64,000 bases of DNA from Candidatus Nanoarchaeia archaeon (lineage in GTDB: Archaea; Nanobdellota; Nanobdellia; Tiddalikarchaeales; Tiddalikarchaeaceae). A model generated the notes under the pieces. It made no database searches, was not told the origin of the DNA, and saw only the letters and a program-made list of their open reading frames with translations. The position numbers and the translations under genes are program-made. Location: the NCBI GenBank assembly GCA_041653395.1, contig JBAZFK010000002.1, positions 33,215 through 97,214 on the forward strand, in the 5' to 3' direction. Positions 312 to 32,321 of the stretch are shown here, one piece after another (position 1 is the first letter of the stretch; each line of letters opens with the position of its first letter).

Positions 312-836
312 TCAATTTTGTTTTTTGATTCTGAACTCACAGCAATCATCACCTCTTGCCAAGCATTTTACTTCATTGCATAAAAACCCCTTATATTCCG
401 AATAGCTTAGTATTTTTTTAATAAACCCTTCAATAAAGCTGCATACACAATAATTTTTTATTGAATGGTTTTTTGATTGCAATGTCCACTCACAAGTCAA
501 TATTGCAGAATCCTCACTCAATTTCAGACTTTTCATTTTAATCCATTTTCTTTGCTCTGCAAATTCTGTAAATTCCTTTATTATTCCTACATAGTTCTTG
601 TTTCTTATTTTTCTTTCTTTTGCCATTAATTCAGCGCTCATTTCTCCATAATTAAAAAAAAGTAAAAGCGCAGCTTTTCCAGTATATTTTTCTAGTATTT
701 CCTGACTCAATGAAAATGTTTCAACTCTCATGATTCTTGAATTCTTGAATTTGTTAAAACTGTTTTTTAAAACAGCTGTGGAAGCATCCAAGAAAAAATC
801 TAAACTTATGACTTTTTCAACAAAATCCAAATTCAT
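312..836 (-). CDS. hypothetical protein, possibly V4R-like with a C-terminal Cys cluster
   Basis: 174-aa ORF. C-terminal CxxxxxC...CC pattern. Weak resemblance only. Confidence 0.35.
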   Translation of the reverse strand: MNLDFVEKVISLDFFLDASTAVLKNSFNKFKNSRIMRVETFSLSQEILEKYTGKAALLLFFNYGEMSAELMAKERKIRNKNYVGIIKEFTEFAEQRKWIKMKSLKLSEDSAILTCEWTLQSKNHSIKNYCVCSFIEGFIKKILSYSEYKGFLCNEVKCLARGDDCCEFRIKKQN

Positions 837-869: not shown

Positions 870-2114
870 TTATTGAAAAAAATTGCTTAAAACCAAATTT
901 CTAACCTCAATATGCCTGTTAATATTTTTTAAATATAATTTATCATCATAACCTTTGAATTCTTCAAGGTATCCTTTTTCATAAGATTTATACAAATATT
1001 CATCATGATATTTTAATATTTTGCTTGAAATTATTTTATCAATAAAATTAATTCTTTTGTGTCTTGAATAAGTAATTGAATCTATTCCATTTCCTGCTCC
1101 GCCAGGTATAAAAATTATTGGCTTAAAACCTTTCTCAATCAATATTTTTTGCCTATACAAATTTTCGGCATTTTGTGGCATTTTTGTTTGAAGCATTCTA
1201 GTGTTTTTATTAGATTTAAGGATTGATTCAAGTAGGCTTTTAAAGAATGAATCCTTGGTACAGTTTGAAAAATCCAAATAAGATGAATTGTCATTAATGT
1301 TTTTTAATGCATAAGCCCACTCATTTTCTTGGGTTCTAAATGCCTGCTTTGTTTGGTAAAACAATGCATCAACCGGTTCGGCTTTTAAAATCTGAACATG
1401 GCTTTTTATTTCTTTATATTCTTGAGGCATTTTAACTTTTGGAGGACTTATTCCCGCAAATGATGAAACCCTTTCAGCCAAAGGAAAGACTTCAGCCAAA
1501 GAACAATTATCCTTTCTCAAAGGCCTATTGTCTTCACAAGTTATTTCATCTTTTCTGTAATAATGATTCCTGTCAAACATGCATGCATCCAAATCCCCTT
1601 TAAATTCCTTAAACTTGAATTTTGGAGTCTGTATAAGTATATGATTTGGAGCATATCCTATTGGAAAAGCATCTGTTGCAGCAGTATGGGATAAAACTTG
1701 GGGAGAAAATATTATTGGCTCAGCAATAACTCTATAAATCTTAGGATTATTCAAAAACTCCAAAACAGCATTGCTTAAATAATCCCCCATTGATAAAGTA
1801 TAATTTTTTTTCTCTTTTCTTGCGCTAATTGTATTTACCAAGGCTTTGATTTCAAGTTCATTTCCTTCTAAATATCCCATTAATGAAGAAAGAGGAGTGT
1901 TATTTTTTTCTATATAATCCCAAAAAACGGATTTGGAATGGTTTTTGGTTGAGTTGATAATTTCTTTAGGATGATATACAAAATCATGAGGATAAAACCC
2001 TCTCCCTTTTTTAGGATTAAAAAAATATCCATCTCTATAGATTTCTGAAACTCGCAAGGAATATTCATTGACATTATTTTCATCTAATCTAGTTACCTTA
2101 ATAACATCTTTCAC
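870..2114 (-). CDS. hypothetical protein
   Basis: 414-aa ORF with coding-like composition. No confident motif. Confidence 0.45.
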   Translation of the reverse strand: MKDVIKVTRLDENNVNEYSLRVSEIYRDGYFFNPKKGRGFYPHDFVYHPKEIINSTKNHSKSVFWDYIEKNNTPLSSLMGYLEGNELEIKALVNTISARKEKKNYTLSMGDYLSNAVLEFLNNPKIYRVIAEPIIFSPQVLSHTAATDAFPIGYAPNHILIQTPKFKFKEFKGDLDACMFDRNHYYRKDEITCEDNRPLRKDNCSLAEVFPLAERVSSFAGISPPKVKMPQEYKEIKSHVQILKAEPVDALFYQTKQAFRTQENEWAYALKNINDNSSYLDFSNCTKDSFFKSLLESILKSNKNTRMLQTKMPQNAENLYRQKILIEKGFKPIIFIPGGAGNGIDSITYSRHKRINFIDKIISSKILKYHDEYLYKSYEKGYLEEFKGYDDKLYLKNINRHIEVRNLVLSNFFQ

Positions 2115-2260
2115 TTATAATATGTATATAATTCTATTTAAATATTCTTTTATTTTTGGACTTTTTAAAAACGAACAAAAAAAACAGAAAAGAATTTTAC
2201 AAGTTTATTCTTAAAGATTCATAAAAAACTATAAAAACCAAGAGATAATTAGTTTAATTC

Positions 2261-2659
2261 ATGGCAACAATACTAATTGTTGATGATGACGAAAAAATAA
2301 GGGCAGTATTGGAGATTTTTTTGAAATCAAAAAATCACAAAATATTAAGCGCTGATAATGGAAAAATTGCAATAAATGTTTTAAAAAAAATGCAGCAAAT
2401 GCCTGATTTAATAATTATGGATGTAATGATGCCCGAACTTGATGGATATAGCACAAGTAGAATAATAAGAAAAGAGATAACAAAAACAGTTCCAATATTA
2501 TTCTTAACAGTTAGGGATTCAAGTAATGATTTAGTGACCGGCTTTGATGCAGGTGGCACTGAATTCATGACAAAGCCTTTTGAATATGAAAAACTTGAAG
2601 CAGTAATTAAAAAGCTTTTATCCTCACCATCCAGCCAAAAAAGAATAATGAGATATTAA
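2261..2659 (+). CDS. response regulator receiver (CheY-like REC) protein
   Basis: LIVDDDE acidic pocket, phospho-acceptor context IIMDVMMPELDG, downstream T (LTVRD) and K (MTKPF) of the REC fold. Stop overlaps the start of the kinase gene (TAAATG). Confidence 0.85.
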   Translation: MATILIVDDDEKIRAVLEIFLKSKNHKILSADNGKIAINVLKKMQQMPDLIIMDVMMPELDGYSTSRIIRKEITKTVPILFLTVRDSSNDLVTGFDAGGTEFMTKPFEYEKLEAVIKKLLSSPSSQKRIMRY

Positions 2660-4348
2660 ATGAAAAATGATTCCGACTTTGAAAAAGTAAATAAGATACT
2701 AAAATCTTTAATTCAAGGAAAAGATATAAAAATTGAAGACACCAAAAATGAAATATATTTTAATCTTAATATAATATCTAAAAAACTTCAGGAAAATAAA
2801 GAAAATCTCAACAAGATAGTTAATTTTAATGAAAAAATAGTTGAAAATGCATTAACAGAATCAAAAGAAAAATTAGCAATAGTTTTCGAATCTTCAAGAG
2901 ATGGAATAGTAATACTTAATAAAAATTCTGAAATAATTGAAATAAACAACAGGCTTACTGAAATAATGGAATACAAAAAAAATGAAATATTAGGCAAAAA
3001 AATCTCACAACTCAAGTCTTTCAAAAAAAATGATTTAAATGAAATGAAGAAAGATTTTTTGGAAATACTCTCAGGGAAAAAATATATTGTAAAAGAATAT
3101 GTAATACACACAAAAAACGGAAAAGAATTAAGCGTTGAAATCCACTCTTCTTCAATAAAAAAAGGGGATGAAGTAACTGGGGTTGCAAGCATTTTAAGGG
3201 ACATAACTGAACAAAAAACTGCAGAAATTGCGCTTAAAAAAAGTGAAGAAAAATTTAAAAACCAATTTCTTTACTATAAAGAAATTGATGATATAAAAAA
3301 TGATTTTATAAGTTTACTGAGTCATGAATTAAAAAGCCCATTAGTTCCAATAATAAGCTATTCTGATTTATTCTTAACAAAAATACTTGGGCCTATAAAC
3401 ACTGAGCAAAAAAAAGCAATATTATCAATTAAAGAAAGTGCTCAAGAATTGCTTAATATGATTGAAGAAATACTTGATATAAGTAGAATAGAAAGAGACA
3501 CAATGAAATATTATTATTCAGATGTTGAAATCAACCAATTAATAAATGAAATTATTAATTCAGAAAAAGGATTTGCTTCAAGTAAAGGATTAAAAATAAT
3601 ATACAAACAAACAAGTAAAAACTTAGTCATTAATACTGACAAGACAAAATTATCAAGAGTTATACATAATTTGTTAAATAATGCCATTAAATTCACAGAA
3701 AAAGGGGGCATAGAAATAAATGTTTTAAAAGAAAAAAATGATTTAATAATAAAAGTAAAAGATTCAGGTATTGGTATTTCTGAGGATAAAAAAGATAAGA
3801 TATTTACAAAATTTTTTCAAATAGATTCATCATTATCAAGAAAATATAAAGGAACAGGAATAGGATTATACAATACTAAAATAGTTGTTGAAAATTTAAA
3901 CGGAAAAATTTCTTTTGAAAGCAAAAAAAACAAGGGAACAACTTTTATTGTCAAACTTCCAATAAAACCAGCCCCCGAAAACAACGTTATTGCAATAATA
4001 GGCGCAAGCCCAAACAAAAGCAGAATGAGCAATAAAGCCATAAGAGCTTATTTAAAAAAAGGATTCAAGGTTTTTCCAATAAACCCCAAATATTCAGAGA
4101 TTGAAGGGCTAAAAGTTTACCCTTCACTTAAAGCCCTTAGCATAAAACCTAAAATAATAAGCGTTTATACAAACCCTGAAATCACTGAAACTTTAATTGA
4201 GGATATTGTAAAAATTGGGCCAAAAAAAGTGTTTTTCAATCCAGGCTCAACAGACAAGCAACTCCTGCAGGAGCTTGACAAAACAAAGCTTAACTATGAA
4301 AGATTATGCAGCATAATGGCATTAGGGGAAAATCCTCAAGATTACTAA
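2660..4348 (+). CDS. sensor histidine kinase (PAS, HisKA, HATPase) with a C-terminal CoA-binding (CoA_binding_2/YccU-like) domain
   Basis: H-box LSHELKSPL, N-box LLNNAIKFT, G1 DSGIGI, G2 GTGIGL. C-terminal ~125 aa IGASPNKSRMSNKAIRAYLKKGFKVFPINPK...GSTD is a typical small CoA-binding Rossmann domain. Confidence 0.8.
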   Translation: MKNDSDFEKVNKILKSLIQGKDIKIEDTKNEIYFNLNIISKKLQENKENLNKIVNFNEKIVENALTESKEKLAIVFESSRDGIVILNKNSEIIEINNRLTEIMEYKKNEILGKKISQLKSFKKNDLNEMKKDFLEILSGKKYIVKEYVIHTKNGKELSVEIHSSSIKKGDEVTGVASILRDITEQKTAEIALKKSEEKFKNQFLYYKEIDDIKNDFISLLSHELKSPLVPIISYSDLFLTKILGPINTEQKKAILSIKESAQELLNMIEEILDISRIERDTMKYYYSDVEINQLINEIINSEKGFASSKGLKIIYKQTSKNLVINTDKTKLSRVIHNLLNNAIKFTEKGGIEINVLKEKNDLIIKVKDSGIGISEDKKDKIFTKFFQIDSSLSRKYKGTGIGLYNTKIVVENLNGKISFESKKNKGTTFIVKLPIKPAPENNVIAIIGASPNKSRMSNKAIRAYLKKGFKVFPINPKYSEIEGLKVYPSLKALSIKPKIISVYTNPEITETLIEDIVKIGPKKVFFNPGSTDKQLLQELDKTKLNYERLCSIMALGENPQDY

Positions 4349-4382: not shown

Positions 4383-5156
4383 ATGAATAAGGAGCTGGAA
4401 AACAAAATAAAAGAAGATATAAAAAAATCAGGATTTCCGCTGGAAATTGATTCCTCAATTGAGCTAAACAAAAAAGGCTGGAGTGTTGTAAACAGCTCAA
4501 GATATTATGATGAGAACAAGAAAGATTACTCTGAAATAGACATTGTTGCCACAAAAGACCAGGGAATAAAAGGAGTAAAAAATATTCTAATAATTGAATG
4601 CAAAAAATTTAGTGAAGGCCAATGGGTTTTTTTCAAGCAAGAGATAAGCAAGCCAAGCGTTTATAACCTAAACATTGTTGAAAATGGCAGGAATATCTCT
4701 TCATACAGCTGGTTTGACAAGAACTTGATGGCAAATCATCATTATTCAAAAAATCCAGTATGCACATACTCAATAGTTCCCCACACTAAAGGCAAAGGTG
4801 AAGTGAATGAGAAAAAGCAAAGAATGATTTATAATGCAGTAAGCCAAGTTGTCAATGCATTAATGTTTTATTTGATCAGGGACAACAAAATGCTTAATCA
4901 GAACAACATTAATGATATTTACTTATTGTATCCAGTTATTATTTTTGACGGCCCATTATTTTCAGCCCAAATGAAAGATGATGAGATTATATTAAAGGAG
5001 GAGAATCATGTGCAATTGCTTTTCTCGCTGCAGCTGAATACTCCATTTCAGATACAATGGGACTATAAAAGCAGGAAAGTAATAAAACAAAAAAACATCA
5101 TAATAGACATTGTCAAAAAAGAATACTTGAACGAATATCTAAAAAATTTTAATTGA
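4383..5156 (+). CDS. hypothetical protein with a PD-(D/E)xK nuclease-like motif
   Basis: EIDIV...IIECKK arrangement (D...ExK) resembles the restriction-endonuclease-like fold. Confidence 0.4.
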   Translation: MNKELENKIKEDIKKSGFPLEIDSSIELNKKGWSVVNSSRYYDENKKDYSEIDIVATKDQGIKGVKNILIIECKKFSEGQWVFFKQEISKPSVYNLNIVENGRNISSYSWFDKNLMANHHYSKNPVCTYSIVPHTKGKGEVNEKKQRMIYNAVSQVVNALMFYLIRDNKMLNQNNINDIYLLYPVIIFDGPLFSAQMKDDEIILKEENHVQLLFSLQLNTPFQIQWDYKSRKVIKQKNIIIDIVKKEYLNEYLKNFN

Positions 5157-28102: not shown

Positions 28103-29419
28103 ATGGAATCATTTTTCAGCCCGAAAACAATTGCGCTAATAGGGGCAAGCAACAAGAAAGGAAAGATTGGAAATGATATATTCAATAATCTTAAAGTTTC
28201 TAAATCAAAAATTATTCCTGTTAATATCAATAAAGAAAAGATTATGGGCCAAAAATCTTACGAGAAAGTGAGTGATTATTCTGGAAAAATTGACTTGGCA
28301 ATAATTGTCATACCTGCAAAATTTGTTTTGGAGGTTTTAAAAGAATGCGGTGAAAAAAAAATAAAGTCAGCAATTATAATAAGCGCTGGTTTTGGAGAAG
28401 TGGGCAATAAAGAGCTTGAAGCTCAGGTTTTTGACCTTTGCAAAAACTATAATATTAAGCTTTTAGGCCCCAATTGCTTAGGCATACTTAATATAAACAA
28501 TAACTTAAATGCCAGTTTTTACAAAGGAAGAATACTTAAGGGAGGTATTTCATTCGTTTCGCAGTCGGGAGCAATAGGTGTTTCAGTTTTGGATAAGTCA
28601 GCAAGTGAAAATATTGGTTTCAGCAAATTCATCAGTGTTGGAAACATGCTTAACACTGATTTTTCTGACTGCATAAAATATTTGAGCAAGGATAAGGATA
28701 CAAAAGTTATTTGTTTATATATTGAAGGGATTAAGGATGGTGAAAGCTTCATTAAAGCAGTAAAAAGCTGCAAAAAGCCAATAATTACCCTGAAAGCAGG
28801 ATTTACAATTACTGCAATGAAAGCGATTTCCAGCCATACTGGAAGCTTGGCGGGAAATAGCAGGATTTATGACAGCATATTCAGGCAATTCGGAATAATT
28901 AAGGTTAATAACCTTAGTGAAATGTTTAATCTTGCAAAATATTTAAGCAATAATCCTATGCCAAAATCAAGAAATGTTTGCATAATAACTAATGCTGGAG
29001 GAATGGGAGTTCTTTGCAGCGATGCCTGCGAAAGCAACGGCTTAACAGTTGCAAAATTGCCTGATGCGGTTGAAAAAGAAATAAGCACATTTCTTCCAAA
29101 TCACTGGAACAAAAGCAACCCTATTGATATTTTAGGCGATGCTTTAGCTGACAGGTATGCTTTGGCATTAAAAACTTTGTCAGGCAAAAAATTTTATGAC
29201 ATATTATTGGTTATTCTTACTCCTCAAAGCAACACTGAAGTTGAAAAAAGCATGAAAGCATTGATTAATTTCAAAGCAAAGAATCATAGCATAGCCATTT
29301 TTTCATGCTTTGTTGGCGGAGAAAAAATTGATAAAGCATTAAAATTGGCTAATAGGCACAATATTATCAATTTTGATGAGCCTTATTTTTTTGCAAAATC
29401 CGTATCAAAATTATTCTAA
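28103..29419 (+). CDS. acetyl-CoA synthetase (ADP-forming) alpha subunit, CoA-binding plus CoA-ligase domains
   Basis: KTIALIGASNKKGKIG CoA-binding start, GPNCLGI, QSGA, phospho-His context SHTGSLAG. Confidence 0.75.
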   Translation: MESFFSPKTIALIGASNKKGKIGNDIFNNLKVSKSKIIPVNINKEKIMGQKSYEKVSDYSGKIDLAIIVIPAKFVLEVLKECGEKKIKSAIIISAGFGEVGNKELEAQVFDLCKNYNIKLLGPNCLGILNINNNLNASFYKGRILKGGISFVSQSGAIGVSVLDKSASENIGFSKFISVGNMLNTDFSDCIKYLSKDKDTKVICLYIEGIKDGESFIKAVKSCKKPIITLKAGFTITAMKAISSHTGSLAGNSRIYDSIFRQFGIIKVNNLSEMFNLAKYLSNNPMPKSRNVCIITNAGGMGVLCSDACESNGLTVAKLPDAVEKEISTFLPNHWNKSNPIDILGDALADRYALALKTLSGKKFYDILLVILTPQSNTEVEKSMKALINFKAKNHSIAIFSCFVGGEKIDKALKLANRHNIINFDEPYFFAKSVSKLF

Positions 29420-30022
29420 ATTTATCCTTGCATCAACCAAGAAATAAGCATTGCCTGAAAAAATCACAGGGTTTAAGTCCATCTCCAAAATTTTTTCTGC
29501 AATTGCTAAATCTCCTATTTTTATCAGTAATTCAGCTAATTTTTCCTTATCAATGCCAGAATTTCCCCTAAAGCCTTCCAGTATTTTTTTGAACTTTAAT
29601 TCATCAATCATGCCATAAGCATCTTTCTTGTTTAATGGAGCCTTTCTGAAGCTCACATCCTTAATTAATTCAACAAAGACTCCGCCTATGCCAAGCATCA
29701 CCATCCTGCCAAAAACTTCATCATTGCTGATTCCTAAAATTAATTCTGTTCCTTTTTTTTGCTCCTGCAGCACAATAGTTTTTGACAGTTTCTTAAGGGA
29801 ATTATAAGCTTTTAGCAGGTCTTTTTTGTCAAGTATGTTCAAAAACAAGCCTCCAACATCACTTTTATGCGAGTATTTTTCGCTGCTAATCTTGATAACC
29901 ACAGGCTTAGTTAGCCTGTCAAATGCTGAAAGCAATTCGTTCTTGTTTGAGCATTCGTAAAATTCAGCCAGGTCAAAATTCCTTGTTTTCATGAACCTCA
30001 ATGAATCGCTTAAGTTTAGCAT
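29411..30022 (-). CDS. acetyl-CoA synthetase (ADP-forming) beta subunit, ATP-grasp domain
   Basis: ATP-grasp fold motifs, convergent with the alpha subunit gene. Confidence 0.65.
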   Translation of the reverse strand: MLNLSDSLRFMKTRNFDLAEFYECSNKNELLSAFDRLTKPVVIKISSEKYSHKSDVGGLFLNILDKKDLLKAYNSLKKLSKTIVLQEQKKGTELILGISNDEVFGRMVMLGIGGVFVELIKDVSFRKAPLNKKDAYGMIDELKFKKILEGFRGNSGIDKEKLAELLIKIGDLAIAEKILEMDLNPVIFSGNAYFLVDARINLE

Positions 30023-32174: not shown

Positions 32175-32321
32175 GAGTCCGTGGCTCAGCTTGGATAGAG
32201 CGACTGCCTCCTAAAAAATTGTGATGATGAGAAGGTCAACTGAAAATTATGTGATGAGACTGACCTACCCTGAGTTTTTGGAGATAGCAGTAGGTCGGGG
32301 GTTCAAATCCCCTCGGGCTCG
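32175..32321 (+). tRNA. tRNA-Arg (anticodon CCT) with a ~72-nt intron at the canonical 37/38 position (exon 1 about 32175-32213, exon 2 about 32286-32321)
   Basis: acceptor gagtccg/cgggctc, D-arm gctc/gagc, anticodon stem actgc...gcagt split by the intron, loop cuCCUaa, T-arm ggggg ttcaaat cccct. Confidence 0.8.
32221..32273 (+). ncRNA. box C/D sRNA embedded in the tRNA-Arg(CCT) intron
   Basis: C gtgatga (32221-27), 12-nt guide, D' ctga (32240-43), 7-nt spacer, C' gtgatga (32251-57), 12-nt guide, D ctga (32270-73). Confidence 0.6.

Follow-up and report, generated by a model that had tools for sequence, protein, structure and literature searches.

What does a histidine kinase gain from a coenzyme A (CoA)-binding domain attached behind its catalytic domain? 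The question is raised by a two-gene locus in a 64-kb window (the whole stretch of 64,000 nucleotides that was analysed) of contig JBAZFK010000002.1 from a Candidatus Nanoarchaeia archaeon, in which a receiver-only response regulator (RR) is followed by a histidine kinase (HK) with a YccU/PH1109-type Rossmann-like domain at its C-terminus. The window has a G+C content of about 30% and an archaeal gene set (eIF6, L31e, S19e, prefoldin, eIF2-alpha, RadA, diphthamide synthase and a fused PriS-PriL primase), and these two genes are its sole HK/RR pair. Judged by its sequence profile, predicted fold and motifs, the C-terminal domain belongs to PF13380 (CoA_binding_2) and has intact predicted CoA-site motifs. 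The reading that we prefer, and to which we give about an even chance, takes the appended domain for a regulatory input that binds a ligand, in which CoA or a CoA derivative would bias the kinase/phosphatase equilibrium acting on the RR.

Both open reading frames (ORFs) were confirmed where the preliminary description had placed them, at 2261-2659 (RR) and 2660-4348 (HK). Response_reg is the only Pfam domain of the RR, which has no output domain. From its translation we read the acidic pocket D8-D10, the phospho-acceptor D54 (codon 2420-2422), T83 and K105, of which D54, T83 and K105 are invariant; the kinase thus has beside it a regulator with the phosphorylatable Asp expected of a cognate partner. 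The RR stop codon had been said to overlap the HK start codon, but in the TAAATG at 2657-2662 the TAA (2657-2659) and the ATG (2660-2662) abut with a gap of 0 and share no base. An RR ortholog lies directly upstream of the HK in the loci L001, L002, L003, L004 and L086, and the gap between the two genes in the orthologous loci is 0-1 nt. Because this tight juxtaposition is kept in all orthologs, it is plausible that RR and HK are co-transcribed in one operon, and their translation is possibly coupled, which is as far as we would carry the earlier statement that the two are co-translated. Upstream of the pair, the AT-rich region that separates it from a divergent orphan gene has a TATA-like 'TATAAAAA' about 25 nt before the RR ATG, and presumably serves as the promoter region.

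The proposed kinase architecture of PAS, HisKA and HATPase_c was borne out by Pfam (Table 1). By these signatures the HK is a classical HisKA-type (class I) two-component kinase, for which autophosphorylation and phosphotransfer are predicted. The phospho-acceptor His222 (codon 3323-3325) is invariant in the 10 fusion orthologs, and the HATPase_c boxes N (HNLLNNAIKF), G1 (DSGIGI), F (FTKFFQ) and G2 (GTGIGL) are invariant in the orthologs as well. No transmembrane segment was predicted in the HK, the translation of which is without a hydrophobic stretch, so the protein is expected to be cytoplasmic. The full-length AlphaFold2 (AF2) model, with a predicted local distance difference test score (pLDDT) of 85 and a predicted template modelling score (pTM) of 0.51, has N-terminal helices, a PAS fold, a long helical hairpin (183-239 and 248-278) in the dimerisation and histidine phosphotransfer (DHp) region, and a Bergerat-fold catalytic domain. 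Structural neighbours of this core detected by Foldseek are WalK, VicK, YF1 and HK853, none of which spans the C-terminal extra domain. The catalytic domain and the extra domain are joined by a linker which is ungapped and of constant length in the orthologs, with an identity of 0-50% (the near-identical P0001 excluded) compared with 67-90% in the flanking domains. As the linker is fixed in length and variable in sequence, there is probably a geometric constraint between the two domains.

The preliminary description had recognised the C-terminal domain by the strings IGASPNKSRMSNKA, KVFPINPK and GSTD, which were located in the HK at residues 447-460, 470-477 and 529-532, respectively. The PF13380 match extends over residues 443-550 (E 9.8e-27, 94.2 bits with a cutoff of 22.8, profile positions 2-110 of 116). 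PDB sequence matches of the domain start with 1Y81 (5e-18) and PH1109/2D59 (2e-16), followed by the alpha subunit of ADP-forming acetyl-CoA synthetase (ACD), TT1466 and PatZ. Modelled on its own, the domain gave a confident AF2 model (pLDDT 93, pTM 0.86), for which Foldseek returned 1Y81 (E 3e-9, template modelling score (TM) 0.76/0.84) and 2D59 (4e-9), then 2D5A, 3FF4, 1IUK and 2DUW. The TM of the stand-alone family neighbours is 0.73-0.84 (0.74-0.84 for 1Y81 and 2D59/2D5A), and one of them, 2D5A (PH1109), is listed with no ligand name and is taken by us to hold bound CoA. Next come ADP-forming acyl-CoA synthetases, PatZ and succinyl-CoA synthetase (SCS) with their CoA-binding domains, and the top 27 structural matches are all of the CoA family. 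NAD(P) enzymes and Rex are found at E ~1e-2 only, the NAD(P) enzymes with a TM of ~0.5-0.6.

Motif conservation was scored against 148 stand-alone relatives, at which a position was called conserved if shared by at least 60% of the family. The motif set of the domain comprises G448-A-S450, N458-K459, R462, P473, N475-P476, E482-G483, Y503, P506, N527-P-G529 and C550, and the fusion keeps most of the family-conserved positions, among them also A445, A460, G468, V471 and V524. The glycine-rich loop and the pocket motifs, the loss of which would speak for a generic Rossmann-like tail, are kept (GAS 448-450, NP 475-476, Y503/P506 and NPG 527-529), and these ligand-site motifs are invariant among the fusion orthologs. 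Hence profile hidden Markov model (HMM), predicted fold and motif conservation all uphold the identification as a CoA-binding domain. Departures from the family consensus include Val474 to Ile, Asp498 to Lys/Glu and, fixed in all fusion orthologs, Val553 to Met. Residues that are invariant in the fusions and not conserved in the family are Y478, I495-K496-P497, Y546-E547-R548 and M553.

The HK is 100% identical to NCBI MFA5333078.1 from a Candidatus Nanoarchaeia metagenome-assembled genome, which is annotated just as 'ATP-binding protein'. A search of 5.8 billion protein clusters identified 9 ortholog clusters of 559-562 aa, with 64-97% identity and the same Pfam set. All fusion clusters with a named source are Nanoarchaeia (DPANN), and the next matches, at 32-36% identity, are without PF13380. 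Could a kinase gene and a small CoA-binding gene have been merged by sequencing, assembly or frameshift error? Stand-alone homologs of 120-135 aa are indeed common in DPANN and candidate phyla radiation (CPR) genomes. On the other hand, the uninterrupted frame of 559-562 aa recurs in at least 9 clusters derived from independent samples, assemblies and assemblers, with the RR directly upstream in all; the ortholog alignment is ungapped at the junction between kinase and CoA domain, no Met or start codon is present there, and the linker keeps its length. Moreover, four independent contigs have the same gene order, namely a V4R gene (-), a 411-414-aa orphan (-), RR (+) and HK (+). Since frame, linker and synteny are conserved across independent contigs, a merge artefact is excluded for practical purposes and gets next to no weight from us; the fusion is real, as had been claimed, and is conserved in the orthologs together with its neighbourhood.

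Purifying selection on the CoA domain is strong. Its identity in the most distant orthologs is 68-69%, compared with 67% for the catalytic domain and 56-57% for PAS, and relative to the 97% identical ortholog (L005) the domain has 25 synonymous codon differences and 1 non-synonymous. With these 25:1 differences it shares the strongest purifying signal within the HK gene with the DHp region (18:1).

How widespread is such a kinase? An exhaustive HMMER search with the domain alone over 1.84 billion representatives gave 2487 matches, and the best 150 of these hold one kinase, which is the representative of the orthologs. No fusion of HK and CoA domain turned up in other lineages, either with the full-length protein or among the best 150 of the 2487 domain matches. 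Thus the search for the same architecture in other archaea, which had been suggested, yielded the 9 Nanoarchaeia clusters and no further lineage, and the fusion seems to be confined to a narrow uncultivated lineage of Nanoarchaeia. A junction profile, made from real junctions and artificial HK/CoA chimeras, returned only stand-alone proteins and missed the true fusions too, and its outcome carries no weight in either direction. A single-domain word-index search gave 13 candidates, a GTDB genome scan found the fusion in one species representative, and a JGI metagenome scan detected two near-identical fragments and one stand-alone homolog (L087). L045 and L046, the matches of which seemed to run past residue 440, were rejected as HK-CoA fusions, being ordinary hybrid kinases with a receiver (REC) domain. 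In full-text searches we found no paper on a histidine kinase with a CoA-binding domain, nor any functional literature on YccU, PH1109 or TT1466, and the term 'CoA' occurs nowhere in the text of the 2018 census of archaeal two-component system architectures (PMC5847659). As far as we searched, the fusion is present in public databases under generic annotation and is undescribed.

Among the stand-alone relatives nearest to the fused domain (49-56% identity) are proteins of Woesearchaeota, 'Ca. Tiddalikarchaeum' and Patescibacteria, and recruitment from a local stand-alone gene would therefore fit. The long domain matches listed are PF13380 fused to an HhH-GPD glycosylase, a dCTP-deaminase-like domain, a DnaJ J-domain, a MarR/TrmB winged helix-turn-helix (wHTH) and CsrA, and a partial GGDEF-PF13380 protein is located on a truncated contig. 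These fusions are the proteins P0222, P0167, P0277, P0228, P0255 and P0136. All of them may be either real regulatory fusions or gene-calling artefacts, and we treat them as leads only.

The sole other PF13380 domain in the window is in the ACD alpha gene. The preliminary description had pointed to the ACD subunits encoded 24 kb away, and their genes are indeed present; they are convergent, with 3′ ends overlapping by 9 nt, rather than a co-directional operon, and the TIGR02717 score of the alpha subunit is below the cutoff of 567 bits. About 25 unrelated housekeeping genes lie between RR-HK and ACD, including RadA, SRP54, FtsY, prefoldin, eIF6 and ribosomal proteins. The CoA domains of ACD alpha and HK are 34% identical over 44 aa and score 64 and 189 bits, respectively, with an HMM of the stand-alone family. 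In contrast, the HK domain is 41-56% identical to stand-alone YccU-type proteins. Assignment to a family of both YccU-type proteins and the ACD module is therefore right at the level of PF13380, with the HK domain much closer to the stand-alone YccU-type than to the N-terminus of ACD alpha. The low similarity (34% over 44 aa, 64 against 189 bits) also led us to reject the HK domain as a duplicate of the ACD gene and, with the distance and the intervening housekeeping genes, to reject a functional linkage to ACD. We regard ACD as metabolic context for the kinase, not as linkage; the organism appears to make ATP via ADP-forming acetyl-CoA synthetase.

The preliminary description had taken the fusion to imply a link of the kinase to CoA or acyl-CoA status; we would say that it suggests one. 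If the appended domain is a regulatory input, we infer its ligand, binding, allosteric coupling, direction of regulation and output as follows. CoA or a CoA derivative would bind in the pocket formed by the GAS, NP, Y..P and NPG motifs, and the ligand state would alter, via the direct tether, the mobility of the catalytic domain or its docking on the DHp helices. As a result, autophosphorylation of His222 would gain or lose ground relative to phosphotransfer to Asp54 of the RR or to its dephosphorylation. As the RR is without an output domain, it would act through protein-protein contacts, and the PAS domain would be a second, independent input. In favour of a regulatory module, PF13380 is also fused to MarR/TrmB wHTH, CsrA and GGDEF (the latter a partial sequence), and in PatZ a PF13380-type domain belongs to the regulatory region that responds to acetyl-CoA.

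Several points weigh against a regulatory input. In histidine kinases the sensory domains usually precede DHp, and what typically stands at the C-terminus is a receiver or histidine phosphotransfer (HPt) module, so the domain may have a non-sensory role. The arrangement of the domains relative to each other is unreliable in the full-length model, as its low pTM indicates, no CoA-related gene adjoins RR-HK in the window annotation, with ACD as far off as described, and the other regulatory PF13380 fusions are singletons, mostly on short metagenomic contigs. In addition, every fusion ortholog has Met456, where 88% of the stand-alone family has Tyr/Phe, every one has Thr in place of Glu531 (72% Glu in the stand-alone proteins), and Gly543 to Lys is fixed in all of them. 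Since no fusion follows the stand-alone consensus at positions 456, 531 and 543, the specificity of the site may have changed.

Perhaps the domain is a non-sensory structural module instead, which adds to dimerisation or stability or offers a docking site to a partner such as the RR or a CoA-using enzyme, with CoA at most a constitutive structural cofactor. The place after the catalytic domain is the one held in hybrid kinases, such as L045 and L046, by protein-interaction or phosphorelay modules, the invariant residues specific to the fusion (Y478, I495-K496-P497, Y546-E547-R548 and M553) could form a new interface, and stand-alone members of the family presumably crystallise as oligomers. 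We nevertheless consider this role unlikely, as a pure scaffold would have no need of pocket motifs under strong purifying selection. The domain could also have been retuned to a different ADP-containing molecule, be it dephospho-CoA, a specific acyl-CoA, ADP/ATP or, like Rex-type sensors, NAD(P)H, in which case the signal would be redox or energy charge instead of CoA itself. The changes next to the pocket that all fusion orthologs share (Y/F to M at 456 and E to T at 531) would agree with such a retuned site, and so would the generic NAD(P)-Rossmann proteins and Rex among the weaker structural matches (E ~1e-2). However, NAD(P) enzymes match the model orders of magnitude worse than the CoA-family proteins that fill the top 27 places, and the loop is of the GAS type seen in the CoA-binding family, whereas NAD(P) proteins have GxGxxG, which makes this alternative distinctly improbable.

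A thiol-redox sensor is the remaining alternative, in which CoA would bind with its thiol beside Cys550. In an oxidising environment, a Cys550-S-S-CoA mixed disulfide, or binding of CoA disulfide, would lock the domain in one state, and the kinase would report the thiol/disulfide state of CoA rather than the abundance of CoA or acyl-CoA. Cys550 (codon 4307-4309) is invariant in the 10 fusion proteins, reaches 96% conservation among the nearest stand-alone proteins of the CoA-binding family, and aligns with a Cys of 1Y81 and with the Cys of the GPNC motif in the ACD alpha of the window. This is presumably the position of Cys123alpha of E. coli SCS, near the CoA thiol, and the C123aT mutant entry 2NU8 is among the Foldseek matches of the domain model; mixed-disulfide chemistry with CoA at Cys550 is thereby conceivable. 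In several archaea the principal low-molecular-weight thiol is CoA, and the conserved neighbour of the locus is a Cys-rich V4R protein with a weak likeness to the redox-sensitive MsvR. Yet the equivalence of Cys550 and Cys123alpha comes from sequence alignment alone, and the match of the neighbour to the NCBIfam MsvR model, a weak resemblance in the V4R part, has 30 bits and is far below the cutoff of 220. Altogether, redox sensing through Cys550 strikes us as quite unlikely.

Were the regulatory-input reading true, a central metabolic cofactor, as CoA, acyl-CoA or CoA-redox status, would be linked directly to a His-Asp phosphorelay, and sensory input to a histidine kinase would come in behind, C-terminally of, its catalytic domain; we know of no description of input through a domain in that position. 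We would also learn what a genome-reduced DPANN archaeon monitors, and gain a functional handle on the large YccU/PH1109 family, which is widespread and structurally solved and to which, to our knowledge, no physiological function is assigned. A wider idea, tentative and on balance doubtful, is that the YccU/PH1109-type domain is a portable sensor of the CoA pool, possibly of its thiol/disulfide state via the conserved Cys, with this kinase as the clearest natural example and the wHTH, CsrA and GGDEF fusions as other outputs. As a mere scaffold, the domain would make the fusion a lineage-specific architectural curiosity.

Table 1. Coordinates of the RR-HK pair, its domains and other features mentioned in the text (positions in the 64-kb window).
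Feature	Position	Strand	Basis or remark
V4R protein, Cys-rich, 174 aa, downstream of the 414-aa gene	312-836	-	Pfam V4R E 5e-7, 30.3 bits (cutoff 31)
Orphan protein, 414 aa, divergent from RR-HK	870-2114	-	411-414 aa gene at same position in L001, L002, L004
AT-rich divergent intergenic region, orphan gene (-) / RR gene (+)	2115-2260	.	Sequence reading
Response regulator (RR), receiver-only, 132 aa	2261-2659	+	Pfam Response_reg E 8e-27
Histidine kinase (HK), 562 aa	2660-4348	+	Pfam PAS_9, HisKA, HATPase_c, CoA_binding_2
HK residues 1-70, N-terminal helical region	2660-2869	+	AF2 helices 4-18, 31-45, 47-78
HK residues 71-186, PAS domain	2870-3217	+	Pfam PAS_9 81-184 E 5e-14; also PAS, PAS_4; pLDDT ~90-95
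HK residues 213-278, HisKA/DHp, H-box SHELKSPL	3296-3493	+	Pfam HisKA E 3e-12
HK residues 327-436, HATPase_c	3638-3967	+	Pfam HATPase_c E 5e-28
HK residues 437-442, 6-residue linker, last catalytic strand to CoA-domain strand 1	3968-3985	+	Ortholog alignment
HK residues 443-562 and stop, CoA_binding_2 (YccU/PH1109-type) Rossmann-like domain	3986-4348	+	Pfam PF13380, AF2, Foldseek
ORF, 257 aa, 34 nt downstream of HK	4383-5156	+	'EIDIVATKD...IIECKK' motif; weak UPF0102 match E 0.09
ACD alpha (CoA_binding_2, Succ_CoA_lig, Ligase_CoA_2)	28103-29419	+	Pfam; TIGR02717 504 bits, E 3e-151
ACD beta, ATP-grasp_5, 203 aa (short)	29411-30022	-	Pfam
tRNA match, 147 nt	32175-32321	+	Rfam; without ARAGORN call
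Fic/DOC-family protein, 436 aa	40680-41990	+	Low-GC stretch, ~25-27% G+C over 40-50 kb
Fused PriS-PriL primase, single ORF of 432 aa	52794-54092	-	Small- and large-subunit domains

The genes around the pair are only partly interpretable (Table 1). The 414-aa orphan protein had no match in Pfam, NCBIfam or PDB, and the V4R gene is a conserved neighbour in the same loci as the orphan gene (L001, L002 and L004). Both products are conceivable as partners of the receiver-only RR or as its targets. Downstream of the HK, the motif and the weak UPF0102 match of the 257-aa ORF suggest a PD-(D/E)XK nuclease-like fold; this ORF is found in L001, L002 and L003 and is absent from L004, and so does not belong to the unit in every locus. 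Elsewhere in the window, the tRNA is probably archaeal and intron-containing, and the low-GC stretch with the Fic/DOC-family gene may be an island of accessory genes. Fused PriS-PriL primases have been reported from Nanoarchaeota and DPANN, and the one in the window agrees with the taxonomic assignment.

Compared with known systems, the front part of the HK is ordinary. It shares the PAS-DHp-catalytic core and the catalytic boxes with PAS-containing class I kinases (WalK/VicK 4I5S, YF1 4GCZ and HK853, and those of Methanosarcinales and Asgard archaea) and is 30-36% identical to archaeal PAS kinases, none of which, among the matches listed beyond the 9 ortholog clusters, has CoA_binding_2. A soluble HK with a REC-only RR also agrees with what the archaeal two-component census describes (PMC5847659). 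With hybrid histidine kinases the HK has in common an alpha/beta domain directly after the catalytic domain, which is here a CoA-binding domain rather than a receiver. Pfam found no Response_reg within the 562 residues, and the structural neighbours of the C-terminal domain are CoA-binding, not CheY-like; the HK was thus rejected as a hybrid kinase for lack of a REC domain in the polypeptide.

The closest likeness of the C-terminal domain is to the stand-alone PF13380 proteins (E. coli YccU, PH1109 = 2D59/2D5A, P. furiosus 1Y81 and Thermus TT1466 = 1IUK), with which it shares family, fold, motifs and the Cys. In the Foldseek alignments it is 30-33% identical to the solved stand-alone structures, compared with 41-56% for metagenomic stand-alone proteins. 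Those proteins are single domains of ~120-145 aa, whereas the HK domain is attached to a kinase and has M456, T531 and K543. Superfamily and fold, along with the alignment to the GPNC Cys, are shared with the alpha subunits of ACD and SCS (ACD1 4XYL/4XYM, SCS 1SCU and the ACD alpha of the window). The HK, however, ends at residue 562 and has no Pfam match to PF13607 (Succ_CoA_lig) or PF00549, and it was rejected as an ACD/SCS alpha-type enzyme, being without the Succ_CoA_lig/phosphohistidine and ligase partner domains. PatZ/Pat (9ISQ/9IT0) is the structural match which shares the CoA-binding domain of the superfamily in a regulatory, non-catalytic part. It differs from the HK in having a full ACS-like region and a GNAT domain, and the activity that is regulated in it is acetylation and not His-Asp phosphotransfer.

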